DNA from: a virus
Taxonomy: Duplodnaviria > Heunggongvirae > Uroviricota > Caudoviricetes
Reading direction: 5' to 3' (one strand)
IMG/VR virus record: IMGVR_UViG_2850784384_000009
Coordinates: 1-16,376 of that record
Length of the DNA: 16,376 nucleotides
Shown: positions 1-15,995 of the stretch, piece by piece
Position numbering within the stretch: the first letter of the stretch is position 1
Layout of the letters: each line of letters opens with the position of its first letter
Notes under the pieces: generated by a model
The model's database searches: none
The model's input: only the letters and a program-made list of their open reading frames with translations
Told to the model about the DNA's origin: nothing
Made by a program: the position numbers and the translations under genes

Positions 1-819
1 ATGTGTCAGGTATTTGGTGTATCCAGGAGCGGTTATTACAACTGGGTACAGCATGAACCCTCAGACAGAAAACAAAGTGATGAGCGGCTAAAACCGGAGA
101 TTAAGGTGGCACATATCCGCACTCGCGAAACATATGGAACCCGGCGGCTCCAGACGGAGCTGGCAGAGAATGGCATCATCGTTGGTCGTGACCGACTGGC
201 ACGTCTTCGTAAGGAGCTGAGGCTACGCTGTAAGCAGAAACGCAAGTTCAGAGCGACTACGAACCCGAACCACAATCTGCCAGTTGCGCCAAATCTGCTG
301 AACCAGACGTTCGCTCCTACAGCACCAAATCAGGTCTGGGTGGCGGACCTGACGTATGTTGCCACACAGGAGGGATGGTTGTACCTCGCTGGCATCAAAG
401 ATGTTTATACGTGCGAAATTGTCGGCTACGCCATGGGAGAGCGCATGACAAAAGAGCTGACAGGTAAAGCCCTGTTTATGGCGCTCAGGAGCCAGCGCCC
501 ACCTGCCGGGCTAATCCACCACTCTGATCGAGGTTCACAGTACTGCGCATACGATTACCGGGTCATACAGGAGCAGTTTGGTCTGAAAACATCAATGTCG
601 CGTAAAGGTAACTGTTACGACAACGCTCCGATGGAAAGCTTCTGGGGAACGCTGAAAAATGAGAGCCTGAGCCACTATCGTTTTAATAACCGGGATGAAG
701 CCATCTCAGTAATACGGGAATACATTGAGATTTTCTACAATCGTCAGCGTCGTCACTCTCGTCTGGGGAATATCTCCCCGGCAGCCTTCAGGGAAAAATA
801 TCATCAGATGGCTGCTTAA
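1..819 (+). CDS. IS3-family transposase OrfB (DDE integrase-type catalytic domain), IS600 ORF2
   Basis: 272-aa ORF beginning MCQVFGVSRSGYYNW; the same protein recurs on the minus strand at 4529..5230. Normally expressed as an OrfAB fusion by -1 frameshifting. Confidence 0.9.
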   Translation: MCQVFGVSRSGYYNWVQHEPSDRKQSDERLKPEIKVAHIRTRETYGTRRLQTELAENGIIVGRDRLARLRKELRLRCKQKRKFRATTNPNHNLPVAPNLLNQTFAPTAPNQVWVADLTYVATQEGWLYLAGIKDVYTCEIVGYAMGERMTKELTGKALFMALRSQRPPAGLIHHSDRGSQYCAYDYRVIQEQFGLKTSMSRKGNCYDNAPMESFWGTLKNESLSHYRFNNRDEAISVIREYIEIFYNRQRRHSRLGNISPAAFREKYHQMAA

Positions 820-861
820 AAAAGAACAAATGGTAGTGTCCGCTATTGCCAGTACACCTCA
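1..861 (+). mobile_element. IS600 (IS3 family) partial copy A: OrfB through the right inverted repeat; OrfA and left end lie upstream of the window
   Basis: OrfB protein matches the IS600 ORF2 sequence as I recall it. The element end ...gccagtacacctca at 861 is the inverse complement of the left-end motif tgaggt... seen at 15912 and at 5632 (minus). The window starts at the OrfB ATG. Confidence 0.8.
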
Positions 862-945
862 ACTTGTGAAGGAAATGGTACTCAGGGGGATTCCAGTACA
901 GGTGGTGCGCAATTAGCTATAAATGGCCTTAACGGTTCGTGCGCT

Positions 946-1569
946 TTGGTATTAAACAACCCATACTTTGAGGCTAATGCCGGGGGGGCAGACCTTGCTA
1001 TAGATAATACTGGGACGCGCCCTGTAACTGTGGTTATAAACGGTGGAAATTTTCATCGCGTGAGCAGTGCAAGATACACGCACACGAATATTCAAGTAAC
1101 AAGCTCAGGTGGGGGAAAAGTTACAGTCATACTCAACGGCACAACGTTCCAGAGCGCAGGGGATTATCAGCCAAGTGCAGAACGACCATACTGGATAACA
1201 GGAGCTAATTGCGAGGTAGTTGACATTGGGTGTGTTTTTACAGAAACAACCAGTAAGGTAACATCGGCTTCTGCATTGTCAGTCACACGCTCGGGAAAAA
1301 TTAACGCCAATGGTAGTATCGACGTTGCTACTGGTGTTTCATCGGTTAACGTGGTTTCTACAGGTGTGTATGATGTTAGCTTTTCTCATCCGCTCGCAGC
1401 AGTTGCTAGCGGTTATATTGTGCAGATAACACCTATATCTGCGCCTGATTCAGTTAGTTGTGATGTTACTTATATTGGCGTAGATACATTTAGGGTGACC
1501 CTGCGCAATACGCTTAGCGGGGCAGGAATCTCCAGTTCGTTTGCATTTAGCATTACCAGACTAATATAA
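946..1569 (+). CDS. 5'-truncated gene fragment of unknown function; possibly the C-terminal receptor-binding part of a tailspike or tail fibre
   Basis: ORF starts at a TTG, but the frame is open with no stop and no start codon back to the IS600 end at 862, so the native 5' part was removed by the IS. It occupies the tailspike position of Sf6/P22 gene order (tailspike, O-antigen modification gene, attP, int). The protein is Gly/Ser/Thr/Val-rich, which fits a beta-rich fold; no motif recognised. Confidence 0.35.
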   Translation: MVLNNPYFEANAGGADLAIDNTGTRPVTVVINGGNFHRVSSARYTHTNIQVTSSGGGKVTVILNGTTFQSAGDYQPSAERPYWITGANCEVVDIGCVFTETTSKVTSASALSVTRSGKINANGSIDVATGVSSVNVVSTGVYDVSFSHPLAAVASGYIVQITPISAPDSVSCDVTYIGVDTFRVTLRNTLSGAGISSSFAFSITRLI

Positions 1570-1577
1570 ATACATTC

Positions 1578-1609
1578 GCCGCCCCATTTGGACATATATG
1601 TAGGGCGGC
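1578..1609. terminator. Putative bidirectional stem-loop terminator between convergent genes
   Basis: gccgccc (1578..1584) and gggcggc (1603..1609) are perfect inverse complements. The 18-nt loop contains the palindrome acatatatgt. T-rich sequence follows on the plus strand. The long loop makes this uncertain. Confidence 0.3.
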
Positions 1610-1622
1610 TTATGTTTATTGT

Positions 1623-2795
1623 TTATTGATTGTTGTTTGTTAATGTGGGTATTAATTCTTTTACTAAAGTTGTGGTTTGTTTTGTTAATTTGATGAATGG
1701 CGTCTCTATTAATTTAAAAGTTAGGCATGATGTGAACGTAATAAGAAATGCAGTTGTGCTTACCAGTATGATAAATGTATTTTCAGTGTAATTATTAGGA
1801 ATAATCCACGTCATTAGGCAATAAAGGAATATCCCATGCAGAAGGTAAACGCTGTAGGTAGTTTCTCCTAGCTTTCTGGTTATATTTAATCTTAATATTC
1901 CATACAAATCACAACCTGATGCGATAATGATAAATGTTATTCCACAAAGAATCAGTGGTAGCGGTGCGTAAGTTGTTTTGAAATACGTCATTTCAAAAAC
2001 CATTATCGCAGTTATTATAATTGGTGTTACTTTTGCTTTGGCAATTCCATTGACTATCTTTGATTTATTTAGCAAAAATGCCAGGAGCCCAAAAAGAAAT
2101 GATGCTATGTGTATTTTACTGAAAAATAAAATGAAAACAAATAGCGATATTGCGCTAATCATAACCATGTAAATACTGACTTTTCTTTTTATGAGCGCGG
2201 AAATTACCGGAAGAGAAAAATAAAAGAACCATTCATATACAAGTGTCCATGTTACAGCGGCATTGATAGTAAATGAATCTTTTACGTCATTAATGTTCGG
2301 CATACCTAGCGCAGTGAATGGCAACCACTTCATTATTGACACAAAAAGCTCTTCTGTGGATACCTGCATTCTCCATCCAGACTTAAAACCTACAATGATA
2401 AAAATGAGACATAGGCTAACTATGAACATTGGGGTTAATCGTAGTAATCTTGATACATAAAGCCTTGTCCAGTCCTGATCTCCAGAGATAATCTTTGAAA
2501 AGAACAGATAACCAGTAATCATAAAAAAGAATGACACACCAACTTGGCCTAAATTTGCTAACAGATTTGATGAAGGTGCTTCCCATACTCCAGATGACAA
2601 GTATCCATTCCAAATTGCTGCGTGATGAATAAGCACGAAAATTGCTAAGAACCCCCGCATTCCATCTATTTGATTATTCCTGCCGTGCTCAACAAGATTT
2701 ATTGGGGAAATTTTATCAAATAACCCCACAGCTAATAACGACATCAATATCACGGATGTTATTAATAATAAACTGTTAATTTCAATCATATGCAT
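1623..2795 (-). CDS. Acyltransferase family 3 integral membrane protein; putative O-antigen O-acetyltransferase (Oac/OafA-like serotype-conversion protein)
   Basis: 390-aa ORF, strongly hydrophobic throughout (multiple predicted TM segments). N-terminal DGMRGFLAIFVLIHHA resembles the acyltransferase-3 signature (conserved R...H). Markedly AT-rich compared with neighbouring phage genes. Sits immediately next to the att core, as oac does in Sf6 and gtr does in P22. Confidence 0.75.
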   Translation of the reverse strand: MHMIEINSLLLITSVILMSLLAVGLFDKISPINLVEHGRNNQIDGMRGFLAIFVLIHHAAIWNGYLSSGVWEAPSSNLLANLGQVGVSFFFMITGYLFFSKIISGDQDWTRLYVSRLLRLTPMFIVSLCLIFIIVGFKSGWRMQVSTEELFVSIMKWLPFTALGMPNINDVKDSFTINAAVTWTLVYEWFFYFSLPVISALIKRKVSIYMVMISAISLFVFILFFSKIHIASFLFGLLAFLLNKSKIVNGIAKAKVTPIIITAIMVFEMTYFKTTYAPLPLILCGITFIIIASGCDLYGILRLNITRKLGETTYSVYLLHGIFLYCLMTWIIPNNYTENTFIILVSTTAFLITFTSCLTFKLIETPFIKLTKQTTTLVKELIPTLTNNNQ

Positions 2796-3083
2796 GCTCT
2801 ATTACGCAATTAAAATTTCTCCAAGTATACTGACTTTTAGTTAATGATCATATAGTTATGTGTAACTGATGAAACAAAACGGAGACACACCAAGCTTTGC
2901 ACTGGATTGCAAGGCTTTGTGCTCTTCTGTGAATGTGTGGCTATATGTTTGAAGATCGTTGTGCCGTATTTGTGACATATATATGGCAACATCATGCATC
3001 AACTTTCTGTTTGTGTCATCAACTATAGCTTAGTGAATGCGGTTAATGCTTGCTAAAACAGATAGTTATGATTGGTGCTACAG

Positions 3084-3129
3084 ATTCGTAATGCGAAGGT
3101 CGTAGGTTCGACTGCTATTATCGGCACCA
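3084..3129 (+). other. Phage attachment core: 3' 46 nt of a tRNA-Thr gene (thrW-type), attP-like
   Basis: attcgtaatgcgaaggtcgtaggttcgact(g)ctattatcggcacca matches the anticodon-loop-to-CCA end of tRNA-Thr(CGU) as recalled. Upstream sequence is not the tRNA 5' half, so no complete tRNA is present. One apparent T-stem mismatch relative to my recollection of thrW. Confidence 0.75.
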
Positions 3130-3143
3130 TTTAAATCAATAAG

Positions 3144-3592
3144 TTACACATCATTAGTACCTTCCTTATTTCTTGACTGGGACAAATTTGGGACCGATGG
3201 GTTCAGAATCAAGTCTATTTGCCGTGCGTGTTCGGTAAGGTGATTAGGTGCGAGGTGAGCATATCGACGAACCATTTCGATAGACTCCCAGCCTCCCATT
3301 TCCTGTAACACTGATAACGGGACTCCGGCTTGAACCAGCCAACTTGCCCAGGTGTGTCTCAAGTCGTGAAATCTGAAATCATCAATACCAGCCCGTCTCA
3401 GCGCCGCTTTCCAGGCTGTGTTTGCGTCATACCGCATCTTCCTTACTGTTGGCGCTTTCGTTCCGTCTGGTTTGGTACAGCTTTCCTTGTACACAAATAC
3501 CCAACGGTGATGATTTCCGATTTGTTTTTTCAATACGCGACATGCAGTATCATTCAGCGCAACGCCAATTGCGCGGTTTGATTTACTCTCTT
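3144..3592 (-). pseudogene. int: Tyrosine integrase, C-terminal catalytic fragment (P22-type Int), separated from its N-terminal part by IS600
   Basis: Contains [15 protein letters not shown] and VRRYAHL (the H-x-x-R and Y of the catalytic tetrad). The first 5 codons of the track ORF 3144..3608 come from the IS600 end. Reads on directly from the N-terminal fragment at 5633..6350. Confidence 0.85.
3590..3592. repeat. 3-bp target-site duplication (ctt) of IS600 copy B, left copy; right copy at 5633..5635
   Basis: ctt immediately flanks both ends of the element (3590..3592 and 5633..5635). Confidence 0.8.
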
Positions 3593-3775
3593 TGAGGTGT
3601 ACTGGCAATAGCGGACACTACCATTTGTTCTTTTTTAAGCAGCCATCTGATGATATTTTTCCCTGAAGGCTGCCGGGGAGATATTCCCCAGACGAGAGTG
3701 ACGACGCTGACGATTGTAGAAAATCTCAATGTATTCCCGTATTACTGAGATGGCTTCATCGGTAATGACTCCAAC

Positions 3776-4279
3776 TTACTGATAGTGTTTTATGTTCAGA
3801 TAATGCCCGATGACCTTGTCATGCAGCTCCACCGATTTTGAGAACGACAGTGACTTCCGTCCCAGCCTTGCCAGATGTTGTCTCAGATTCAGATTATGTC
3901 GCTCAATGCGCTGAGTGTAACGCTTGCTGATAACGTGCAGCTTTCCCTTCAGGCGTGATTCATACAGCGGTCAGCCATCCGTCATCCATACCACGACCTC
4001 AAAGGCCGACAGCAGGCTCAGAAGACGCTCCAGTGTGGCCAGAGTGCGTTCCCCGAAGACGTGCGCCACAACCGTCCTCCGTATCCTGTCATACGCGTAA
4101 AACAGCCAGCGCTGACGTGATTTAGCACCGACGTAGCCCCAATGTTCGTCCATTTCAGCGCAGACAATCACATCACTGCCCGGTTGTATGCGCGAGGTTA
4201 CCGACTGCGGCCTGAGTTTTTTAAGTGACGTAAAACCGTGTTGAGGCCAACGCCCATAATGCGTGCGCTGGCGCGACAT
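3776..4279 (-). pseudogene. insB: IS1 insB reading frame interrupted by an in-frame TGA
   Basis: Frame reads ...VVVWMTDG then TGA (minus-strand codon at 3971..3973) where canonical InsB has Trp (TGG). The frame then continues [27 protein letters not shown]... to the normal end. Confidence 0.75.
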
Positions 4280-4473
4280 CCGACGCCATTCATGGCCATA
4301 TCAATGATTTTCTGGTGCGTACCGGGCTGAGAGGCGGTGTAAGTGAACTGTAGTTGCCATGTTTTACGGCAATGAGAGCAGAGATAGCGCTGATGTCCGG
4401 CAGTGCTTTTGCCGTTACGCACCACGCCTTCAGTAGCGGAGCAGGAAGGACATCTGATGGAAATGGAAGCCAC
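4198..4473 (-). CDS. insA: IS1 InsA (transposition inhibitor / N-terminal part of InsAB')
   Basis: 91-aa [46 protein letters not shown]..., close to canonical InsA with a few substitutions. Confidence 0.9.
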
Positions 4474-4528
4474 GCAAGCACCTTAAAATCACCATCATAC
4501 ACTAAATCAGTAAGTTGGCAGCATTACC

Positions 4529-5230
4529 GGCTTCATCCCGGTTATTAAAACGATAGTGGCTCAGGCTCTCATTTTTCAGCGTTCCCCAGAAGCTTTCCAT
4601 CGGAGCGTTGTCGTAACAGTTACCTTTACGCGACATTGATGTTTTCAGACCAAACTGCTCCTGTATGACCCGGTAATCGTATGCGCAGTACTGTGAACCT
4701 CGATCAGAGTGGTGGATTAGCCCGGCAGGTGGGCGCTGGCTCCTGAGCGCCATAAACAGGGCTTTACCTGTCAGCTCTTTTGTCATGCGCTCTCCCATGG
4801 CGTAGCCGACAATTTCACACGTATAAACATCTTTGATGCCAGCGAGGTACAACCATCCCTCCTGTGTGGCAACATACGTCAGGTCCGCCACCCAGACCTG
4901 ATTTGGTGCTGTAGGAGCGAACGTCTGGTTCAGCAGATTTGGCGCAACTGGCAGATTGTGGTTCGGGTTCGTAGTCGCTCTGAACTTGCGTTTCTGCTTA
5001 CAGCGTAGCCTTAGCTCCTTACGAAGACGTGCCAGTCGGTCACGACCAACGATGATGCCATTCTCTGCCAGCTCCGTCTGGAGCCGCCGGGTTCCATATG
5101 TTTCGCGAGTGCGGATATGTGCCACCTTAATCTCCAGTTTTAGTCGCTCATCACTTTGTTTTCTGTCTGAGGGTTCATGCTGTACCCAGTTGTAATAACC
5201 GCTCCTGGATACACCAAATACCTGACACAT
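4529..5230 (-). pseudogene. IS600 OrfB transposase, 5' part, disrupted by the IS1 insertion (3' remainder at about 3635..3760)
   Basis: Identical to the plus-strand OrfB up to ...FNNRDEA, then the sequence runs into the IS1 end. The last residues of the track ORF 4502..5230 are IS1-derived. Confidence 0.85.
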
Positions 5231-5265
5231 CGCTTCAATGGGAAATTGTTGTCGCCATTGTTCGA

Positions 5266-5568
5266 TTAACGCGTATTTTTCAGCGACTCCTGTGCAAAAT
5301 ACGCTGTTGCTTTTTTTAATATATCTCGCTCAAGGCGAGCTTCATTTAACGCCTTACGCAGTTGCAGAATTTCAGATTCCAGTTCAGCCACCGTGCGGGA
5401 ACCAGGAGTACCGAGCCCTTTTCTGGCGGCGGTAACCCATTGTCCTAAAGTGCCTTCAGGAAGGAATAATCGGGAAGCGTCTTCACTGATCGAAAGTTGA
5501 TTTTCAAGAACCGTTCTGACAGCTTCGGCTTTGAACTCTTTAGAGTAACGTCGGGTTTTTCTGCTCAT
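5266..5568 (-). CDS. IS600 OrfA (helix-turn-helix / leucine-zipper transposase N-terminal protein)
   Basis: 100-aa ORF MSRKTRRYSKEFKAEAVRTVLENQLSISE..., matching IS600 ORF1 as recalled. Confidence 0.9.
   Translation of the reverse strand: MSRKTRRYSKEFKAEAVRTVLENQLSISEDASRLFLPEGTLGQWVTAARKGLGTPGSRTVAELESEILQLRKALNEARLERDILKKATAYFAQESLKNTR
5311..5317 (-). promoter_or_regulatory. Probable programmed -1 ribosomal frameshift slippery site (A7) for the IS600 OrfAB fusion
   Basis: ttttttt on the plus strand is A AAA AAA on the coding strand, near the 3' end of OrfA where the OrfB frame overlaps. This is the standard IS3-family arrangement. Confidence 0.5.
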
Positions 5569-5632
5569 TATTAGCTCCTTCTGATGCCATTCTATTTCAG
5601 GAAGGAGTGTCCGTTAAACTCAGGCTACCTCA

Positions 5633-6350
5633 CTTCCGGGTTTATCCATGCCACCCGGCGCTGCATATCTATTTGTTGCCATTCAAGGTTGATGATGTTC
5701 GAGCGTCTTAAGCCTGTTGCCAGTGCAAATTCAACAACAGACTTTAATGGCTCCGGACATTCATCAATCAGCCTTTGTGCTTCATGGGGCTCCAGCCAGC
5801 GGATCCGTTTATTCTTTGGTTGAGGCACTTTAATAATTGGTGCCTTATCCAGCATTTTCCATTCACGCTCTGCGGCTCTTAGTAGGGCCTTTATAAATGA
5901 AAGATGCGTAGCCTTCGTTGCAACGGACGCTGGTTTTGGCGTGTATTCTGGAACAGGTTTCCCTTTTTTTCTGCATGATTCTGCCCTGAGTTTCCAGTTT
6001 TCCTCATGACGCCGGTTCGTCATTTTCTGCATTGCTGAATAAATTTTTGATTCAGTAATGTCTCTTAGTTGTATTCCTGCGAAATGTTGAAGCCAGAATC
6101 CGATCCGGCTTTTGTCATCGTCCAGTGATTTTTTATGTGCTTTCTCTTCAAGCCACCTGACACACGCTTCCTCGAACGTTATATCAGGTATTTCACCAAG
6201 TTTGCTGACCCGCCATGCTTCAGCCTTTAGCTTGTCATGGAGTTCTGTCGCCTGCCTTTTGTCCTTTGTTCCAAGAGACTGTTTAAATCTTTTACCGTTC
6301 GGCAATGTGAAACTGGCGTACCATATTTCACCTCTGCGGAAGAGTGACAT
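5633..6350 (-). pseudogene. int: Tyrosine integrase, N-terminal fragment (P22-type Int), interrupted by IS600
   Basis: [46 protein letters not shown]... matches the P22 Int N-terminus as recalled. Contains TGLRRSNI (the first catalytic Arg). The last 3 codons of the track ORF plus the stop are IS-derived. Confidence 0.85.
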
Positions 6351-6428
6351 TTTCTTTCCTCTGTTATGCCATCACCCGCGCTCACCTGGACAGTATGCAG
6401 CGGAGACTGAAGAGCCGCAATGAAGTGG

Positions 6429-7597
<1,169 letters not shown>

Positions 7598-7669
7598 TGG
7601 AGCACCTGTGTTGTTCTGAGGTGAGCATATCACCTCTGTTCAGGTGGCCAAATTCAGTGTGCCACTTCA

Positions 7670-8824
7670 TGGATGCCTGTTGAGCAGGAAGCGCCAACCC
7701 AGACTGGCTGGGATTTAACTGGCAACGCAACCGGGATTCTGGAACTCTCCGTGAAGTGCAACATGGGCGATCCGGATAACGATTTCTTCGAGCTTCGTGC
7801 AGATGACCTGCGTGATGAGCGTTCTTACCGTCGCCGCATCCAGGCATCCGCCAAAAAACTGGCGAATAACATTGAGTCAGCGATTGCCAAACAGGCAACT
7901 GAAATGGGCTCGCTTGTTGTTCACGATACCCGCGCAATTGGTCCATCGACTGGCCTGCCTGGCTGGGATTTTGTGTCTGATGCAGAGCGACTGATGTTCT
8001 CCCGTGAGCTAAACCGCGACATGGGCATCAGTTACTTCCTGAACCCTGACGATTACCGCAAAGCAGGCCGCAACCTGGTAGATGGTGACATCTTCGGGCG
8101 CGTTCCTGAAGAAGCATATCGAAACGGTACTATTCAGCGTCAGATTGCTGGCTTTGATGAAATTCTTCGCTCACCGAAACTTCCGGCAGTTACCAAGTCA
8201 ACCGCGACTGGTGTAACTGTTTCTGGTGCGCAGAAGTTTAAGCCGCAGGCATACACCCTTGATACCGATGGTAACAAAGAGAACGTCGACAACCGTGTTG
8301 CAACGGTGACCGTATCCTCCACCACCGGATTTAAGCGCGGCGACAAAATCAGCTTCATTGGTGTGAAGTTCCTGTCTCAGATGGCGAAGAATGTGCTGAC
8401 TGATGACGCGACTTTCTCAATCACCCGTGTGATCGATGGTACTCACATCGAAATCACGCCGAAGCCGATTGCGCTGGATGACGCGTCACTGACAAAAGAA
8501 GAGAAGGCTTACGCTAACGTAAACACCTCTCTTGCTGATACCACTCCGGTAAACGTTCTGAACGTGGCAACAACCACCGCTAACGTGTTCTGGGCTGATG
8601 ACTCAATCCGCCTGCTGTCTCAGCCGATCCCGGTAACCCATGAACTGTTTGCTGGCATGAAAACGTCTTCCTTCAGCATTCCAGGTATTGGTGTTAACGG
8701 CATCTTCGCAACGCAGGGTGATATCAACACTCTGTCTGGTAAGTGCCGTATTGCTGTGTGGTATTCAGCATGTGCTGTACGACCAGAGGCAATTGGTGTT
8801 GGTCTGCCTAACCAGACCGCGTGA
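7670..8824 (+). pseudogene. P22-type major capsid (coat) protein gene, 5'-truncated at the IS911 boundary
   Basis: Reading frame from 7670 gives [18 protein letters not shown]... ending GVGLPNQTA, which aligns with P22 gp5 from about residue 46 to its C-terminus as recalled. No native start or ribosome-binding site; IS911 directly abuts. Confidence 0.85.
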
Positions 8825-8868
8825 TAACCAGAGGGAGCTTCGGCTCCCGTTTTTATCTGGAGACAAGC

Positions 8869-9093
8869 ATGACACACATGATCTTTCGTCATGGCGACAT
8901 GAAGAAGTGGAAAGGCGTTGGCTACGACTTTGAAATCGTGAAAGCCGAAGAGCTTCAGGAATATCTGGATGCTGGCTGGTTTTCACATCCTGATGACCTT
9001 TTGAAGGATGTTGCAGAGCCAGAAGAAAAACAGTGTAAAAAGCCTGGTCGAAAACCTAAGGCGGCAGCAGATGAACCTGACAACGAAGGGTGA
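8869..9093 (+). CDS. Small hypothetical protein between the coat and gp4-like genes
   Basis: ATG at 8869 preceded by ggaga. 74 aa with an acidic, Lys/Pro-rich C-terminus. Overlaps the gp4-like start by 23 bp. The track ORF start at 8821 overlaps the coat stop and is unlikely. Confidence 0.4.
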
Positions 9094-9571
9094 TTTAGTT
9101 CTTGCGGCATTACGTAAGCTCGGTGTTGCATCAAATGCCACGTTAACCGATGTCGAACCGCAGTCTATGGAAGACGGCGTCAACGACCTTGAAATGATGA
9201 TGGCTGAATGGCTTGGCGGTGATGCGTCACCTGGTATCAACGTTGGCTACATTTTTGCTGATGCAGATGTTGCTCCGGATCCGGGCGATGAGCACGGTTT
9301 ATCAAATAACGCTATCAATGCCGTCATTTTCAACCTTGCCTGCCGAATTGCTCCAGATTATGCGCTGGAAGCGTCTGCAAAACTTATAACCACTGCCAGA
9401 TACGGGAAAGAGCGACTCGTCAAACTGTCTGCAATGGACAGGGCAAAAGCAGCTAAATGTAAGTCCGGTTATCCAAACCGTATGCCTGTTGGTAGTGGTA
9501 ACCAGTTGGCGAAGTGGAATGGTTGGAATTACTTCCACCGAAAGGAACCTTGCGATAACGGGAGCGAATAA
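9071..9571 (+). CDS. P22 gp4-like head completion / portal-closure protein
   Basis: From the internal Met: [33 protein letters not shown]... is 166 aa and resembles P22 gp4 as recalled. The upstream 21 codons of the track ORF are probably not translated. Confidence 0.75.
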
Positions 9572-10989
9572 TGCCTATTCAGCAACTTCCGCTTATGAAA
9601 GGTGTCGGCAAAGACTTCCGAAACGCCGACTATATCGACTATCTGCCAGTGAATATGCTGGCTACACCCAAAGAAATCCTGAACAGCAGCGGATATCTTC
9701 GCTCATTCCCGGGCATTGCCAAACGTTCTGACGTGAACGGTGTATCTCGCGGCGTCGAGTACAACATGGCGCAGAATGCTGTTTATCGCGTGTGTGGCGG
9801 CAAGCTGTACAAAGGAGAAAGTGAAGTCGGTGATGTTGCCGGAAGTGGTCGTGTATCAATGGCGCATGGTCGGACATCACAGGCGGTAGGCGTTAATGGT
9901 CAACTGGTCGAGTATCGCTATGATGGCACGGTCAAAACCGTCTCAAACTGGCCTACAGACAGTGGATTCACTCAGTATGAGTTAGGTTCAGTTCGCGACA
10001 TTACGCGCTTACGTGGGCGTTATGCGTGGTCAAAAGACGGAACTGATTCATGGTTTATCACTGACCTTGAAGACGAATCTCATCCTGACCGTTACAGCGC
10101 ACAATATCGTGCCGAGTCTCAGCCTGACGGCATCATCGGTATCGGGACATGGCGAGACTTCATCGTCTGCTTTGGTTCATCGACTATTGAATATTTCTCC
10201 CTGACTGGCGCAACCACCGTTGGTGCCGCTTTGTATGTTGCACAACCATCGCTGATGGTGCAGAAAGGCATTGCCGGAACTTACTGCAAAACGCCATTCG
10301 CTGATTCGTATGCGTTTATCAGCAATCCGGCAACGGGTGCGCCGTCTGTGTATATCATCGACTCCGGTCAGGTGTCACCAATTGCCAGCGCGAGCATTGA
10401 GAAAATCCTCCGCTCCTACACTGCTGATGAACTGGCTGATGGTGTGATGGAATCGCTGCGATTTGATGCTCATGAGTTGCTGATTATCCACCTTCCGCGT
10501 CACGTCCTCGTGTACGACGCATCTTCAAGCGCCAATGGCCCACAATGGTGTGTGCTGAAAACAGGTCTGTATGACGATGTGTACCGCGCTATCGACTTCG
10601 TTTACGAAGGCAATCAGATAACGTGCGGCGATAAGCTGGAATCTGTTACCGGGAAACTGCAATTCGATATCAGCAGCCAGTACGACAAGCAACAGGAACA
10701 CCTGCTGTTTACTCCACTCTTCAAAGCGGATAACGCCAGAGTGTTCGACCTTGAGGTTGAATCGTCAACTGGCGTTGCGCAGTACGCCGACCGCCTTTTT
10801 CTCTCTGCAACCACTGACTGCATCAATTACGGGCGTGAGCAGATGATTGAGCAGAATGAACCGTTCGTTTACGACAAGCGTGTTTTGTGGAAGCGAGTAG
10901 GGCGCATCAGGAAAAATGTCGGCTTCAAATTGCGCGTTATCACGAAGTCACCTGTCACTCTGTCTGGCGCTCAGATAAGGATTGAGTAA
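9571..10989 (+). CDS. P22 gp10-like head completion / tail hub protein
   Basis: 472 aa starting [49 protein letters not shown], near-identical to P22 gp10 as recalled. Start overlaps the upstream stop (taATG). Confidence 0.85.
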
Positions 10990-11786
10990 TGGCTGATTCG
11001 AATCTCAATGTGCCGGTAATCATCCAAGCTACGCGGCTCGATACATCAGTCCTTCCACGCAATATCTTCTCGCAGTCGTATCTGCTTTACGTTATCGCAC
11101 AGGGCACTGATGTTGGTAACGTGGCTAACAAAGCCAACGAGGCCGGACAGGGCGCTTATGATGCACAGGTCAGGAACGATGAGCAGGATGTGATTCTCGC
11201 TGACCATGAGCAGCGAATTTCTGCTGCGGAAGCAACGCTTGTTAATCATGAGGAGCGAATCAGACAGGCAGAATCAACTCTTCAGGACCATGAAACACGA
11301 ATAGCTCAGAATGAAAGCGATATTTCGTCGCTTGACACAAGAGTTCAGTCGCTGGAGTCGCAGGTTTCAGACCATGAAACGCGCATCGATGCTCTGGAGT
11401 ATGCAACCACACGCAAGAAGTCAGAGGTTGTTTACTCTGGTGTATCTGTAACCATCCCGACAGCGCCGACCAACCTTGTTAGCCTGCTGAAAACGCTCAC
11501 ACCGTCATCCGGCTCGTTGGCACCATTCTTCGACACCGTTAACAACAAGATGGTTGTGTTCAACGAGAACAAAACCCTGCTCTTCAAGTTGTCGATTGTC
11601 GGCACGTGGCCCAGCGGAACCGCCAACAGGTCAATGCAGCTAACCTTTTCCGGCTCTGTTCCTGACACACTGGTCAGCAGTCGTAATGCGGCGACAACAA
11701 CCGACAACATCCTGTTAGCTACGTTCTTCAGCGTGGATAAAGACGGCTTTCTTGCCACAACCATCAAGATAATCGCGGAGCAGTGA
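10989..11786 (+). CDS. P22 gp26-like tail needle (cell-envelope penetrating plug) with an extended C-terminal domain
   Basis: Conserved N-terminus [41 protein letters not shown]. Central 14-residue periodic repeat (DHExRI...) typical of the trimeric coiled-coil core. About 125 aa of C-terminal domain beyond the helical core. Confidence 0.8.
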
Positions 11787-12241
11787 TGATTACATTCAAA
11801 CCAACGCGAAACATCGACCTGATAGAAGCAGTCGGAAATCACCCTGACATTATCGCCGGGAGCAACAACGGTGATGGATACGACTACAAACCTGAATGCC
11901 GTTACTTTGAGGTGAACGTGCACGGTCAGTTTGGCGGCATTGTTTACTATCAGGAGATTCAGCCGCTGACATTAGATTGCCACGCCATGTACCTGCCAGA
12001 GATTCGCGGCTTCAGCAAGGAAATTGGGCTGGCGTTCTGGCGATACATTCTGACTAACACCACCGTTCAGTGCGTAACATCGTTCGCTGCACGCAAATTC
12101 CGACACGGTCAGATGTACTGCGCAATGATTGGCCTTAAGCGTGTAGGAACCATCAAGAAATACTTCAAAGGCGTGGATGACGTGACTTTTTACAGCGCCA
12201 CACGCGAAGAACTAATCGACTTCCTGAATCACGGGAGATAG
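11783..12241 (+). CDS. gp14-position virion assembly/ejection-associated protein
   Basis: Intact 152-aa ORF immediately after the needle gene with an ATGA start/stop overlap. Assigned by synteny with P22 (26, 14, 7, 20, 16). Confidence 0.55.
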
Positions 12242-12243
12242 CC

Positions 12244-12852
12244 ATGTTATATGCATTTAAGCTGGGCAGAAAACTGTGCGGCGAGGAACCTTATTGCCCT
12301 GAAAAAGGCGGGAAAGGTGGCAGTTCTGATAAAAGCGCAAAGTATGCAGCAGAAGCCCAGAAGTATGCTGCAGACCTGCAAAATCAGCAGTGGCAGACGA
12401 TCATGAAAAACCTTGCTCCGTTCACGCCTCTTGCGGAGCAGTATGTTAACCAGCTTCAGAACCTTTCCAGTTTAGAAGGTCAGGGGCAGGCACTTAATCA
12501 GTATTACAACTCTAAGCAGTATAAAGACCTTGCAGGGCAGGCGCGTTACCAGAGTCTTGCTGCTGCGGAGGCGACGGGTGGACTTGGTTCGACAGCCACA
12601 AGCAATCAACTGGCTACGATCGCGCCGACACTCGGTCAGTCTTGGTTATCAAATCAGATGAGCAATTACAACAATCTGGCAAACGTTGGGCTTGGTGCGC
12701 TGCAAGGTCAGGCAAACGCCGGGCAGACGTACGCCAACAACATGAGCAGCATTGCACAGCAAAGCGCAGCTCTTGCCAGCCTTTTGGGAACATCAACGCC
12801 TTGGGGCGCTGGTATTGGTGCTGGTATCGGATTGCTTGGCTCGTTGTTTTAA
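12244..12852 (+). CDS. gp7-like ejection (internal virion) protein
   Basis: 202-aa ORF MLYAFKLGRKLCGEEPYCPEKGGKGGSS... with a Gly-rich hydrophobic C-terminus. Assigned by synteny and N-terminal resemblance. Confidence 0.6.
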   Translation: MLYAFKLGRKLCGEEPYCPEKGGKGGSSDKSAKYAAEAQKYAADLQNQQWQTIMKNLAPFTPLAEQYVNQLQNLSSLEGQGQALNQYYNSKQYKDLAGQARYQSLAAAEATGGLGSTATSNQLATIAPTLGQSWLSNQMSNYNNLANVGLGALQGQANAGQTYANNMSSIAQQSAALASLLGTSTPWGAGIGAGIGLLGSLF

Positions 12853-12861
12853 GGGGTAATC

Positions 12862-14193
12862 ATGGCTACTTGGCAAGGAACAAACGGCGGATTGTTGGCT
12901 GGTATCGGCGGCGTCAACTCAAACGCTCCGAGCGTAAATGACATCGGCAATACGCTTCAGCTTATCAGGCAGAACAATGATATTGAGCGTTCAGGCGCTA
13001 ACAATGTTGGGCTGACTGCTTTGCAAGGTCTTTCAGGTATTGCGGGTGTTTTTCAGCAGGAAAAGCAGGCTCAGCGGCAGAAAGAATTTCAGCAGGCGTA
13101 CGCTAATGCTTATGCGTCTGGTGATCGCGGTGCTTTGCGTCAGTTGGCTACTCAATATCCAGACCAGATTGAATCCGTTCGTAAAGGCATGGGATTCATT
13201 GATGAAGAGCAGCGTAATTCTATCGGCACCTTAGCGGCTGGCGCACGCCTTGCGTCATCGTCTCCAGAAGCAATGCAATCATGGCTGCAAAACAACGCCG
13301 GTGAGTTAGCTCGTGTTGGCGTTAATCCTCATGACGTCGCTCAGATGTACCAACAGAACCCGCGGCAGTTCGGCGAATTTGTCGATCACCTGGGGATGAA
13401 CAGTCTCGGGCCCGAAAAATACTTTGACCTACAGGATAAAATGCAGGGTCGCCAGGTTACCATGCGCGGTCAGGATCTGGATTCGCAAACCGCCGCTCGG
13501 AATCAGGCAATCACAATGCGCGGACAAGATATCCAGGCGAATTTAGGTCAGCAGCGCATTAATCTGGACGCAGAAACAAACCGCATTAACAACGAAAATA
13601 AGCGCCTTGACCGGATGCTATCAGCAGAAACTAACGACCTGAAGCGCCAGGAAATACAGAGCCGCATAGCAGCCAACAACCAGCAGTTGCAGCAGAAGCA
13701 GCAAGCGCTAAATGATGGCTACAAAGACGGCATCAACACCCTCACAACCAGCATGTTCACTCTGAACGATATCGTTAGTTCTCCTTCACTTAAGAGCATT
13801 ACAGGCTTACGTGGAGTAATCCCCAACGTTCCAGGCTCACAGGCTGCAGACACTCAGGCACGACTTGATACCTTTAAATCACAAGCATACCTGACAGCGG
13901 TTCAGGCCATGCGAGGCATGGGCGCACTTTCTGATGCCGAGGGCAAAAAGCTCGACCAGGCTGTTGGTTCGCTGCAGAACTCGCAGAGCGAGGAGTCCTT
14001 TCGTCGCAACGCTGGCGTCATCCTGAACACGCTCAACCAGAAGCGTAATGAGGCGGTTGGTAAGTACGTTCAGCAAAACGGTATCAAGCGAGTGGAAGCG
14101 CCTCAGGCTTCTATAGATTACCTGAAGCAGCACCCCGAGCTGTCAATCGACTTCATTAATCGCTACGGATATCTTCCATCTTTGGGGCAGTAA
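12862..14193 (+). CDS. gp20-like ejection (internal virion) protein
   Basis: 443-aa ORF, Gln/Asn-rich with internal TMRGQD repeats. Assigned by synteny. Confidence 0.6.
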   Translation: MATWQGTNGGLLAGIGGVNSNAPSVNDIGNTLQLIRQNNDIERSGANNVGLTALQGLSGIAGVFQQEKQAQRQKEFQQAYANAYASGDRGALRQLATQYPDQIESVRKGMGFIDEEQRNSIGTLAAGARLASSSPEAMQSWLQNNAGELARVGVNPHDVAQMYQQNPRQFGEFVDHLGMNSLGPEKYFDLQDKMQGRQVTMRGQDLDSQTAARNQAITMRGQDIQANLGQQRINLDAETNRINNENKRLDRMLSAETNDLKRQEIQSRIAANNQQLQQKQQALNDGYKDGINTLTTSMFTLNDIVSSPSLKSITGLRGVIPNVPGSQAADTQARLDTFKSQAYLTAVQAMRGMGALSDAEGKKLDQAVGSLQNSQSEESFRRNAGVILNTLNQKRNEAVGKYVQQNGIKRVEAPQASIDYLKQHPELSIDFINRYGYLPSLGQ

Positions 14194-15924
14194 ATGGCTA
14201 ATTACCGTGATTTGTTAGAGCAGGCTGGCGCACGTTACGGTGTGCCAGAAGGGTTGATGACTGCACTGGGTGCCAAGGAGTCTTCTTACAACCCTGCCGC
14301 AGTAAGCTCCGCCGGGGCTGTAGGATTGACTCAGGTCATGCCTGGGACATGGCGTGATATGGGTTATACCGATGAGCAAATGCAAAACCCCGAATATCAG
14401 GCTGACGCTGGCGCGCGCTATCTGGCAAAGATGTACCAGCAGTTTGGTAACTGGCGTGACGCTCTTCAGGCTTATCACGACGGTCCCGGCAACGTTATGA
14501 AGGCAAAGCGTGGTGAATATACGCCAGGACCTGAAGGCCGCGGTTACGTTGATGATCGCTTTGCTCAATGGGCTGGTGACCCGGTGACAGACTCAACAGT
14601 CGAACAGCGCGCCACCTCTGCAAAGGTACATCCTCAGCAAGACCCTAACAACCCGTTTGCACAACTGGAAGTACAGTCATCCGAACAAGTATCGGCATCA
14701 GGTGTGCAGTCAGACCCAAATAATCCATTTGCTCAGATTGAGCAGCAGGCAGCCAGTCAGCAGCCACCTCAACCCGTAAGTTCTGTCGCACCGAAACCTG
14801 TTCAGCAACAAACAGTTAATCAGGCCAATAATGCACCAACACGGGAAGAACCATCATTGATGCAACAAGCTGGCGATTGGCTCACTGGTGGTCAAAGTGC
14901 AGGGCAAATTGCAGAACAGGCTGGTCGTGGTCTGGTAAACATACCATTTGACGTATTGCAGGGTGGCGCAAGTCTGATTAATGCAATCAGTCAGGGGCTT
15001 GGGGGGCCAAAAGTATTGGATGATGTTTATCGTCCAGTAGACAGACCGACAGACCCCTACGCGCAAGCTGGAGAGTCAATAGGCGGTTATCTTGTTCCTG
15101 GAGCAGGTGTAGCTGGAAACATGGTCATTGGTTCTCTCGCTGACGCGGCGAATCAACGGGGTGATTTTGCCGAAAATGCCGCTATTAATGCCGGACTTAG
15201 CATTGCTACGCATGGCCTGATAAATGGCGTTACCCGTGGTGTTCGTGGTGCATCAAATATAATTAGTGGCAATAAAACATCTGCACAGAGAGCGACCACT
15301 GCGCCAACAGAAACATCACCATTCTCCGGTGATGCCGCTGCAGCAACAAATCCTGCGGTTCATGCCGCAGAGGCAAGAGTAGCACAAGGTGTACCAATGA
15401 CGCCTGCGACGAAGAACCCAGAGGAAGTCGTTCGCACAGTAGCAGCACAAAAAAGGCCAAATCTCGCTTCATCGCTTGATGAACTAGATATCAATCCTCA
15501 GGCTGAAGTTCTGGAGTCTGCTGAAAGGCTTAATGTTGATTCATTACTCCCTTCACACTTTTCCGGGAACGAGCAATACAAGGCAGTTGAGCAAGCAATC
15601 AAGTCCCGTGCGGGTTCTGCTCTACAGGTGCAGGAAAATGAAGCAATCAGGCAGCTAGCACAGGGCGCGGGTGAGATAATTGATCGCGTTTCCGGTGCAA
15701 AAGATGCTCTTGGTATGAGCGACAAGTTTATTGATACGGTCAATGGAAGAATGTCTGCGCTGATGAAACGAAGCGACCAGCTTTATCGCAATGTTGAAAA
15801 GGCGATGCCTGCAGGTGCAAAAATTGATGCGCCATCAACAAGGTCAATGCTCAAACAGGTGGCAGAAGATCTTGGCGGGATGAAAAACCTTGACCCTATT
15901 GAAAAGAGAGTTGAGGTAGCCTGA
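14194..15924 (+). CDS. gp16-position ejection protein with N-terminal lytic transglycosylase (SLT) domain; 3' end replaced by the IS600 terminus
   Basis: N-terminal [28 protein letters not shown] plus AYHDGPGNV are SLT-family motifs including the catalytic Glu-Ser. The last 4 codons (VEVA) and the stop lie inside the IS600 left end, which starts at 15912. Confidence 0.7.
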
Positions 15925-15995
15925 GTTTAACGGACACTCCTTCCTGAAATAGAATGGCATCAGAAGGAGCTAATAATGAGCAGAAAAACCCAACG
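15912..15995 (+). mobile_element. IS600 left-end fragment (inverted repeat plus first 7 codons of OrfA), interrupted by IS629
   Basis: tgaggtagcctgagtttaacggacactccttcctgaaatagaatggcatcagaaggagctaataatgagcagaaaaaccc is identical to the inverse complement of 5553..5632. It diverges at 15996 where IS629 begins. Confidence 0.85.

Follow-up and report, generated by a model that had tools for sequence, protein, structure and literature searches.

An intact oacB gene of the SF0315 type, encoding an acyltransferase-3 O-antigen acetyltransferase, in a decayed prophage

Analysis of a 16,376-nt stretch of viral DNA, hereafter the window, identified the minus-strand open reading frame (ORF) at 1623-2795 (390 aa, ATG start, one stop) as oacB. 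We put the probability at about 95% that it is the SF0315-type allele of this acyltransferase-3 (AT3) O-antigen acetyltransferase gene, carried on a moron cassette that stayed intact while the prophage around it decayed. Identity, intactness, motifs, composition and context were all computed here, and no feature within the window contradicts the oacB reading.

The window protein is identical to OacB of phage Sf101 at 388 of 390 residues, and the function of Sf101 OacB was confirmed by NMR after cloning (PMC4159516). The two proteins differ at A231 and V266, and the genes differ by 3 nt at gene positions 486, 692 and 796. The same two amino acid and three nucleotide differences were published for Sf101-oacB versus SF0315 of S. 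flexneri 2a 301 (PMC4159516), and this exact match indicates that the window carries the chromosomal reference allele; its protein should thus not differ from that of SF0315. The exact window protein is listed in 2935 collection blocks and occurs, named as a Shigella acyltransferase, on at least 1000 contigs.

The original prediction of an acyltransferase-3 enzyme was borne out by a Pfam search, in which PF01757 (Acyl_transf_3) matched well above its cut-off (E 2.8e-32, 112.5 bits, cut-off 31) over residues 41-353 and profile positions 2-321 of 326. PHROG 3333, 'O-acetyltransferase', also matched the protein (E 2.3e-71). PF01757 was the sole Pfam family in the 390 aa and there is no SGNH domain, making this a standalone AT3 protein. 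The R...H signature that had been noted at the N-terminus is DGMRGFLAIFVLIHH at residues 44-58, which contains the DxxR motif of TMH1 (D44-G-M-R47) followed by H57-H58, and the RxxR motif of TMH3 is present as S115-R116-L-L-R119. Alanine mutagenesis of OacB showed that R47, H58, W71, F98, R116, R119 and S146 are each essential (PMC8952252), and all seven residues are found in the window protein, along with four conserved motifs (DGxRGxLAxxVxxHH, FFxITGYLFxxK, WxLxYEWxFY and YSxYLxHG). Hydrophobicity was likewise as described (GRAVY +0.82; 8 Kyte-Doolittle peaks reach 1.6 or more); OacB was previously predicted to have 11 TM helices (PMC8952252). A single-sequence AlphaFold2 model was all-helical (13 helices), with a mean pLDDT of 43.7 and pTM of 0.26 that were too poor for a fold search. 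A PDB sequence search with OacB returned no solved relative at E up to 1, and neither OacB nor the neighbouring tail fragment has a model in NCBIfam.

Base composition sets the gene apart, as its reported AT richness implied: the ORF is 33.9% GC (GC3 32.2%) versus 50.2% for the rest of the window and 50.8% for the structural genes, a composition foreign to the flanking phage genes. The interval originally singled out, 1570-3083 (34.8% GC), is the gap from the tailspike stop codon (1569) to the att core (3084). The start codon is ambiguous, as AGAG lies 1 nt upstream of M1 and 7 nt upstream of M3, and 388-aa versions of OacB are present in databases.

Convergent with oacB is the 3' remnant of a P22-like tailspike gene (862-1569, plus strand, open frame 865-1569), which matches PHROG 17420, 'tail protein', at profile positions 372-567 of 568. 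The remnant is 76-84% identical in amino acids to the C-termini of the tailspikes of Sf101, E. coli G3/10 and a related viral contig (L017), showed no similarity to the Sf6 tailspike, and is 100% identical across eight S. flexneri-type loci (L003-L010). Between the two convergent stop codons lies a GC-rich hairpin (1572-1615) with a 9-bp G+C stem (dG -20.3 kcal/mol, z = -3.95, 0 of 200 shuffles folding as well), which is probably a bidirectional terminator; the annotated oac terminator of Sf6 is at the equivalent place. A terminator consensus scan missed this hairpin because its loop is 14 nt, and folding recovered it. No Rfam family matched anywhere in the window.

On the other side of oacB, the 5' UTR and presumed promoter region (2796-2927, minus strand) form an upstream part that is conserved wherever oacB occurs, and Sf101 and the E. 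coli G3/10 prophage both cease to be homologous to the window at 2927, even though the att/int context of each is different. A sigma-70 consensus scan upstream of the oacB ATG gave 11 matches versus 8.8 expected and nothing recognisable as a promoter, and the minus-strand candidate that scored best (3019-2991) is not in the conserved cassette but in the attP arm. Given no recognisable promoter, we infer expression of oacB only from identity with other loci.

The gene had been assigned to the position of serotype-converting cargo, and its surroundings agree: it converges on the tailspike 3' end and lies 288 bp from a thrW-type att core that is followed by int, the tailspike/att slot that oac holds in Sf6. 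An HK542/SfX-like thrW-type attP phage arm (2874-3083) overlaps the cassette end at 2874-2927, and positions 2874-3147 are 97.8% identical to the stretch of phage HK542 leading into its annotated attP. The core itself (3084-3129, plus strand) is a 46-nt 3' part of tRNA-Thr (thrW) that coincides with the annotated attP of HK542 and SfII, and it matches the thrW tRNA sequence at 45 of 46 positions. ARAGORN detected no complete tRNA in the window, the thrW piece being the 46-nt core only. Next to the core is a C-terminal fragment of a thrW-type, SfII/SfX-like integrase (3144-3592, minus strand; Pfam Phage_integrase profile positions 57-171) that is 97.6% identical to SfII int, and the N-terminal part follows at 5633-6350 on the same strand (profile positions 1-58 at residues 184-236). 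The int halves are contiguous in six related loci (L003-L005 and L008-L010), giving an intact 387-aa gene.

Much of the remaining sequence is IS elements. The 3' part of an IS600 (1-861, plus strand; orfB 1-819, Pfam rve/HTH_21) removes the 5' two thirds of the tailspike gene, and its terminal sequence ...TATTGCCAGTACACCTCA ends at 861. It is ~99% identical to the IS600 that splits int (3593-5632, minus strand, 3-bp duplication CTT), annotated in RefSeq as 'IS3-like element IS600', and an IS1 (3761-4528) with a 9-bp duplication GGCTTCATC sits inside that second copy. The same IS600 is present in another related locus (L006) without the IS1. An annotated IS911 (6421-7669, minus strand, 99.1% identity), whose flanking bases (CAA / TGG) are not a target duplication, connects the int upstream region to a coat gene truncated at its 5' end. 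This begins a block of P22-like virion genes (7670-15911, plus strand, from Pfam matches) that comprises the N-terminally truncated coat gene, gp4, gp10, the gp26 needle, a gp14-like DUF2824 gene, gp7, gp20 and a 3'-truncated gp16, and is 96.9% identical to phage APC_JM3.2 and 94.7% to Sf101. The block ends at an 84-bp IS600 5' fragment (15912-15995, plus strand) with a terminal repeat, TGAGGTAGCCTGAGTTTA, that does not differ from the IS600 end at 5632. Beyond it, an element annotated 'IS3 family transposase' (plus strand, HTH_Tnp_1 orfA) extends to 16376 and runs off the window; judging by its inverted repeat, it may be IS629-like. The claim that every neighbour had been hit by IS elements therefore holds for the tailspike, int, coat and gp16 genes, which are truncated or split by IS600, IS1 and IS911, but not for the six genes from gp4 to gp20 (9008-14193), which are free of IS elements and of which two carry in-frame deletions. 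The companion claim that oacB itself is undisrupted stands, as the gene is full length and retains all essential residues inside a decayed prophage.

Comparison with related loci placed this arrangement in its genomic setting. Positions 862-3113, covering the tail remnant, terminator, oacB and 318 bp upstream, show 0 differences from five gtrII-type (serotype-2a-like) loci (L003, L004, L005, L008 and L010), and a further locus (L007) is 99.9% identical to the window, with adrA 1.3 kb past the left IS600. These six loci place the oacB block beside adrA (MASE2+GGDEF) and proC, as published (PMC4206707). The setting typical of oacB is thus visible as the tailspike remnant, att core and int in the window, and adrA, which lies outside it, is seen in L007.

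In our reading, a low-GC moron cassette, consisting of the tailspike 3' end, the terminator hairpin, oacB and 132 bp upstream, occupies the tailspike/attP slot of P22-like phages and survives intact here in a proA-adrA prophage remnant cut by IS600, IS1, IS911 and the presumed IS629-like element. An earlier proposal was that Sf101 oacB DNA moved from sbcB to adrA by means of flanking IS elements (PMC4159516). We give even odds to a different route, in which a distinct P22-like oacB phage that integrates at thrW lysogenised the host as a tandem neighbour of the gtr prophage and later decayed, the oacB block being its att-proximal end. The junction beside oacB points this way: oacB is joined, with no intervening IS, to a complete attP-like site in which the 46-nt thrW core has a phage arm on either side. 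The junction resembles an unrecombined attP, and this suggests a P22-like prophage that integrated at thrW and has decayed, not Sf101 DNA mobilised by IS elements. The window and the gtrII-type loci agree perfectly as far as the core; from 3114, inside the core, identity drops to ~97.5% in int, the outcome expected of site-specific exchange at the core. Consistent with a phage of this kind, the order att - oacB - tailspike' - gp16' ... gp4 of a P22 prophage is preserved in L006, and an intact int (thrW-type) - att core - oacB - tailspike - gp16 - gp20 series is found in L017, a viral contig of 37.5 kb. Parts of the separate-phage proposal may have been stated already in Wang et al. 2014. The amino acid identity of only 76% between the tailspike remnant and that of Sf101 also sits well with a separate phage.

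OacB acetylates O-3 (major) or O-4 (minor) of O-antigen rhamnose III (RhaIII), producing group O-factor 9 (PMC4159516, PMC4206707, PMC8973906). The original prediction had cautioned that the substrate could not be assumed; this published acetylation supersedes that caution, and its point that the enzyme is not that of Sf6 was correct. The account of Teh et al. 2020 given in PMC8973906 describes loss of O-factor 9 and sensitivity to Sf6 when oacB was deleted in 2457T. The O-antigen backbone genes lie outside the window, and we infer enzymatic activity and phenotype in the source strain from the literature. As a standalone AT3 protein of the inner membrane, OacB would receive acetyl-CoA from the cytoplasmic face into a pore predicted to be lined by R47 and H58 of TMH1 and by the TMH3 RxxR (R116, R119), with the roles of R47 and RxxR taken from comparison with TmAT (PMC12423673). 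The acetyl group would then cross the membrane to the periplasmic face and be transferred there to O-3, or less often O-4, of rhamnose III in the O-antigen repeat. Since OacB has no SGNH domain, the final sugar transfer must fall to the AT3 domain itself, possibly to periplasmic loop 5, which is long and contains the essential S146. The published consequences are group O-factor 9, altered antibody recognition and a block to phage Sf6 infection. Among S. flexneri serotypes, the most prevalent ones have an O-factor 9 defined by RhaIII 3/4-O-acetylation. The modification protects the cell from Sf6 (PMC8973906) and, according to published abstracts, alters the O-antigen at which vaccines are aimed.

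Could OacB act mainly on another acceptor, such as GlcNAc O-6 or a different glycan? The abstract and Table 1 of PMC8952252 do put GlcNAc 6-O-acetylation under OacB, and the AT3 family acts on many acceptors (PMC12423673), but GlcNAc 6-O-acetylation (O-factor 10) has been assigned to oacD on SfII, and single and double deletions in 2457T separate the oacB and oacD activities (PMC8973906). OacD is encoded in the same loci (L003, 4216-5262) and has no significant similarity to OacB. OacC, at a reported 72% identity, is interchangeable with OacB for RhaIII 3/4-O-acetylation (PMC4206707). NMR of O-polysaccharide modified by oacB only has already been reported, with RhaIII acetylated at O-3/O-4 and GlcNAc O-6 not acetylated, and we therefore consider a main acceptor other than RhaIII very improbable.

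The decay around oacB raises two other possibilities. With four nearby phage genes truncated or split by IS elements, the ORF might be a decaying pseudogene, or even a chance reading frame, but this explanation is refuted by the strong PF01757 match, by the 388/390 identity, by full length and identity to a widely conserved protein with all essential residues present, and by the probability of a stop-free run of 390 codons at the local base composition (P ~4e-13); the other five frames contain 14-48 stops. A gene that is intact yet silent in the source strain, because IS elements removed a distal promoter or activator or because no rhamnose III is accessible, is improbable but less remote than either of the preceding explanations. 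The promoter scan without a clear promoter would fit silence, as would the splitting of the upstream int by IS600::IS1 and the rearrangement of the region beyond it relative to L006. However, over the 318 bp upstream, as far as the att core, the window does not differ from loci whose int is intact, and the cassette is functional when cloned on a plasmid and also in Sf101, where the upstream contexts are quite different (PMC4159516). Maintenance of an open reading frame in 34% GC DNA amid heavy decay also argues for selection.

Papers that appeared between 2014 and 2022 already describe the gene, the activity of its product, the essential residues and the location among IS elements, so the window adds no new oacB biology. 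Its increment is descriptive only, a proA-adrA variant with a nested IS600::IS1 in int and a relocated virion block, and its att junction hints at the route by which oacB arrived.

Several known systems resemble this one. Phage Sf101 (KJ832078, orf16) encodes OacB of the same 390 aa length in the same convergent order of tailspike, terminator and oacB; it differs in the tailspike C-terminus (76% amino acid identity) and upstream of position 2927, where the window has a thrW-type attP/int and Sf101 has orf17 and an sbcB-type int. OacC of S. flexneri serotype 6 belongs to the same AT3 family and uses the same acceptor (PMC4206707); it is 72% identical to OacB and carried on an SfII-like prophage (PMC4206707). 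The window protein is an OacB allele and OacC is a separate gene; 72%-identical relatives are also carried by two viral contigs (L019 and L020). Sf6 Oac (OacA) shares the Pfam family, the N-terminal R...H and RxxR motifs, and its placement in a P22-like genome, where the gene is flanked by the tailspike and int/attP and a terminator follows the convergent tailspike gene, but it acetylates O-2 of rhamnose I (group 6) rather than rhamnose III (PMC4206707). Orthology to the Sf6-type enzyme was rejected, as identity is 26% over 184 residues (E 3e-6) and the lengths differ, 333 aa for Sf6 Oac versus 390 aa here, as had been pointed out; OacD was rejected as an identity as well. OafA and OafB of Salmonella and OatA of Staphylococcus, in which the TMH1 Arg and TMH3 RxxR handle acetyl-CoA as features common to OacB (PMC12423673), are AT3-SGNH fusions, unlike OacB (PMC8952252). 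Gene order is shared with the "transposon-like structure" of the proA-adrA region from 2014, which descriptions in PMC4206707 and PMC8973906 give as int, att, oacB, tail remnant and IS600 in the same order as the window. The window differs in that int is also interrupted by IS600::IS1 and in that the 8.2-kb P22-like virion block, absent from the gtrII-type loci, lies beyond IS911 on the int side, whereas in L006 it is on the tailspike side and colinear with Sf101.

The interval 1570-3083, where the original prediction placed an AT-rich acyltransferase-3 cargo gene amid decayed phage genes, is exactly the gap between the stop of an upstream plus-strand ORF (1569) and the start of a tRNA-derived att core (3084). 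As predicted, it holds a single long minus-strand ORF of 390 aa with an ATG start (1623..2795). Random sequence with the base frequencies found here (A 0.33, T 0.33, G 0.17, C 0.18) would meet a stop once in 14 codons on average, so a 390-codon open run would arise by chance with P ~4e-13, and the other five frames carry 14-48 stops across the same span. The proposed AT-richness also held, with 33.9% GC in the ORF (GC3 32.2%) compared to 50.8% in the P22-like structural genes, and 34.8% in the interval compared to 50.2% in the rest of the window. Which ATG starts the gene is a little uncertain (2787-2800): the sole purine-rich, Shine-Dalgarno-like stretch, AGAG at 2800-2797, lies 1 nt from the annotated ATG (M1) and 7 nt from the second (M3), and databases contain 388-aa as well as 390-aa versions of the product.

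By sequence, this gene is oacB, encoding O-antigen O-acetyltransferase B. Searching phage-collection DNA found Enterobacteria phage Sf101 with 98.7% identity across window 1412-2927, a region annotated in Sf101 as 'O-acyltransferase B' and 'bifunctional tail protein'. Both proteins are 390 aa, and 388/390 residues are identical, the differences being A231V and V266I. Within the gene, the window differs from Sf101 at 2310, 2104 and 2000, which are gene positions 486, 692 and 796. Base substitutions at these same positions, with the protein changes A231 to V and V266 to I, were published for Sf101-oacB versus oacB (SF0315) of S. flexneri 2a strain 301 (PMC4159516), and therefore the window carries the chromosomal reference allele. 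In the assembly collection, 2935 indexed blocks list precisely this 390-aa protein, which is seen on at least 1000 contigs and goes by the source name 'MULTISPECIES: acyltransferase [Shigella]'. When 5,426 complete E. coli genomes were searched, the oacB part of the query was matched, among the matches listed, in one record only, strain G3/10 (L002, NZ_CP060075.1, 3372979-3374151), which carries the Sf101 allele; the other listed matches were confined to the integrase part. Strain G3/10 was isolated from the faeces of a healthy person.

The acyltransferase-3 (AT3) assignment is borne out by a Pfam PF01757 (Acyl_transf_3) match over residues 41-353 (E 2.8e-32, 112.5 bits, cut-off 31) and by a match to PHROG 3333 'O-acetyltransferase' (E 2.3e-71). 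The R...H signature picked out in the original prediction corresponds to DGMRGFLAIFVLIHH, residues 44-58, and the protein is strongly hydrophobic (GRAVY +0.82), as had been claimed. OacB counts as a standalone AT3 protein. All seven residues that alanine mutagenesis found essential in OacB (R47, H58, W71, F98, R116, R119 and S146; PMC8952252) are found in the window protein, as are all four motifs reported as conserved among OacB homologues.

In published work, the S. flexneri O-antigen gains group O-factor 9 when OacB acetylates its rhamnose III, mainly at O-3 and to a minor extent at O-4 (PMC4159516, PMC4206707). According to the account of Teh et al. 2020 in PMC8973906, strain 2457T turns from serotype 2a2 into 2a1 when oacB is deleted, and becomes sensitive to phage Sf6. 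A comparison across TmAT proteins places two elements in the acetyl-CoA site, the Arg of TMH1 (R47 in OacB) and the RxxR motif of TMH3; the site lies in a pore, from which the acyl group is presented to the extracytoplasmic face (PMC12423673). A Pfam search of the protein found no SGNH domain, in agreement with PMC8952252, so the final transfer step must fall to the AT3 domain itself; we propose that the long periplasmic loop 5, which bears the essential S146, may take part in this last step. The original interpretation is supported in substance, and the gene was known before, down to the allele, as were its function, critical residues and context.

Window 862-3113, which spans the tailspike remnant, an intergenic hairpin, oacB and 318 bp upstream of oacB, has zero differences from five loci carrying gtrII and oacD (L003, L004, L005, L008 and L010), which is a serotype-2a-type arrangement. 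A sigma-70 consensus scan upstream of the oacB ATG found no convincing promoter (11 matches versus 8.8 expected). From the identity to these gtrII-type loci and the finding that cloned oacB is functional (PMC4159516), we infer that oacB is expressed. The G+C-rich hairpin (1572-1615; 9-bp stem, dG -20.3 kcal/mol, z = -3.95) lies between the convergent stop codons, and Sf6 has an annotated oac terminator at the matching place.

The view that IS elements disrupt all neighbours proved too strong, as tailspike, int, coat and gp16 are hit and gp4 through gp20 are not. The window opens with the 3' part of an IS600 (1-861) and the tailspike 3' remnant (862-1569); beyond oacB come the upstream part of the cassette (2796-2927), an HK542-like attP arm (2874-3083), the thrW att core (3084-3129) and the C-terminal part of int (3144-3592). 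An IS600 (3593-5632, 3-bp duplication CTT) separates this from the N-terminal part of int (5633-6350), and itself contains an IS1 (3761-4528, 9-bp duplication GGCTTCATC). Since the matching S. flexneri-type locus L006 has the int IS600 without the IS1, the IS600 inserted before the IS1. IS911 (6421-7669), with no target duplication (CAA / TGG), links the region upstream of int to a coat gene that has lost its 5' end, the first of the block coat', gp4, gp10, gp26, gp14-like, gp7, gp20 and gp16' (7670-15911), and gp16' abuts an 84-bp IS600 5' fragment (15912-15995) cut by an IS629-like element (15996 onward).

Locus L006 has the virion-gene block on the opposite side of oacB, colinear with Sf101, and IS911 inverted, so an IS-mediated inversion or transposition of ~8 kb has taken place in the window lineage. 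Another locus, L007 (CP130061.1), is 99.9% identical to the window, except that 7670-11388 is absent from it, and its left-hand IS600 is followed by adrA and proC; this match and these neighbours identify the window as the published 'transposon-like structure upstream of adrA'. Compared to L006 and G3/10, there are in-frame deletions in the gp26 needle (51 bp, 17 aa; ~11744-11760, between 17-bp direct repeats) and gp7 (84 bp, 28 aa; 12766-12777, between 12-bp direct repeats), both shared with L007.

The chromosomal copy was proposed in PMC4159516 to have arisen by IS-mediated transfer of oacB from an Sf101 prophage at sbcB. The cassette is highly identical in the window, Sf101 and the G3/10 prophage, beginning in the tailspike 3' end at ~1412 and ending at one base, 2927, against Sf101 and G3/10 alike, but the attachment contexts differ: Sf101 has an sbcB-type int, the G3/10 carrier, which looks like a complete P22-like prophage, has its end adjoining ybhB-bioA, and the window has a thrW-type attP. 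No IS lies between oacB and the window's attP-like site, and phage arms flank the core on both sides. This site (2874-3129) is attP-like, not attR-like, with a 46-nt thrW core flanked by int and, at its other end, by a 210-bp phage arm of HK542 type. Against the gtrII-type loci the window is 100% identical up to 3113, breaks at 3114 inside the core, and has 12 differences between 3114 and 3516, through int, suggesting that the core was the point of exchange by site-specific recombination. The order in L006 is that of a canonical P22 prophage (att - oacB - tailspike' - gp16' ... gp4), and in IMG/VR contig L017 the series thrW-type int - core - oacB - tailspike (586 aa) - gp16 - gp20 is intact. 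Taken together, these observations suggest, at about even odds, that the chromosomal oacB descends from a thrW-integrating P22-like oacB phage in tandem with the gtr prophage, as an alternative to the IS-mediated transfer. This origin may already be partly stated in Wang et al. 2014, and is a minor point, a small addition to a known gene.

A ~54-bp boundary segment (2866-2927) lies upstream of oacB in Sf101 and G3/10, and also occurs in the HK542 attP arm and, at 81% identity, in SfII between attP and the gtrA-like ORF2 (L013 2372-2424). Such a segment may mark a junction between modules or be a regulatory element shared by lysogenic-conversion cargo.

Relatives of OacB on viral contigs are 72% (L019, L020), 50% (L021, L022) and 32% (L023) identical to the window protein. 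The L022 gene (5989-7131, on a metagenomic viral contig) is 36% GC and lies convergent to a tail gene of the phage (Phage_tail_C_2), on which side the phage DNA is 52-58% GC, so the pattern of a low-GC moron beside the tail gene extends beyond oacB. A GNAT acetyltransferase lies ~1.2 kb upstream of this relative. In L017 (3367-4560; IMGVR_UViG_2713896773_000006), a 14-bp insertion in a T/G-rich repeat just before the stop (window position 1629) replaces the last OacB residues and lengthens the protein to 397 aa. No significant similarity was found between OacB and the OacD of L003. Sf6 Oac, given in the original prediction as about 333 aa, is indeed 333 aa and so shorter than OacB, to which it is 26% identical across 184 residues. 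The identity of L019 and L020 is at the level published for OacC versus OacB (PMC4206707).
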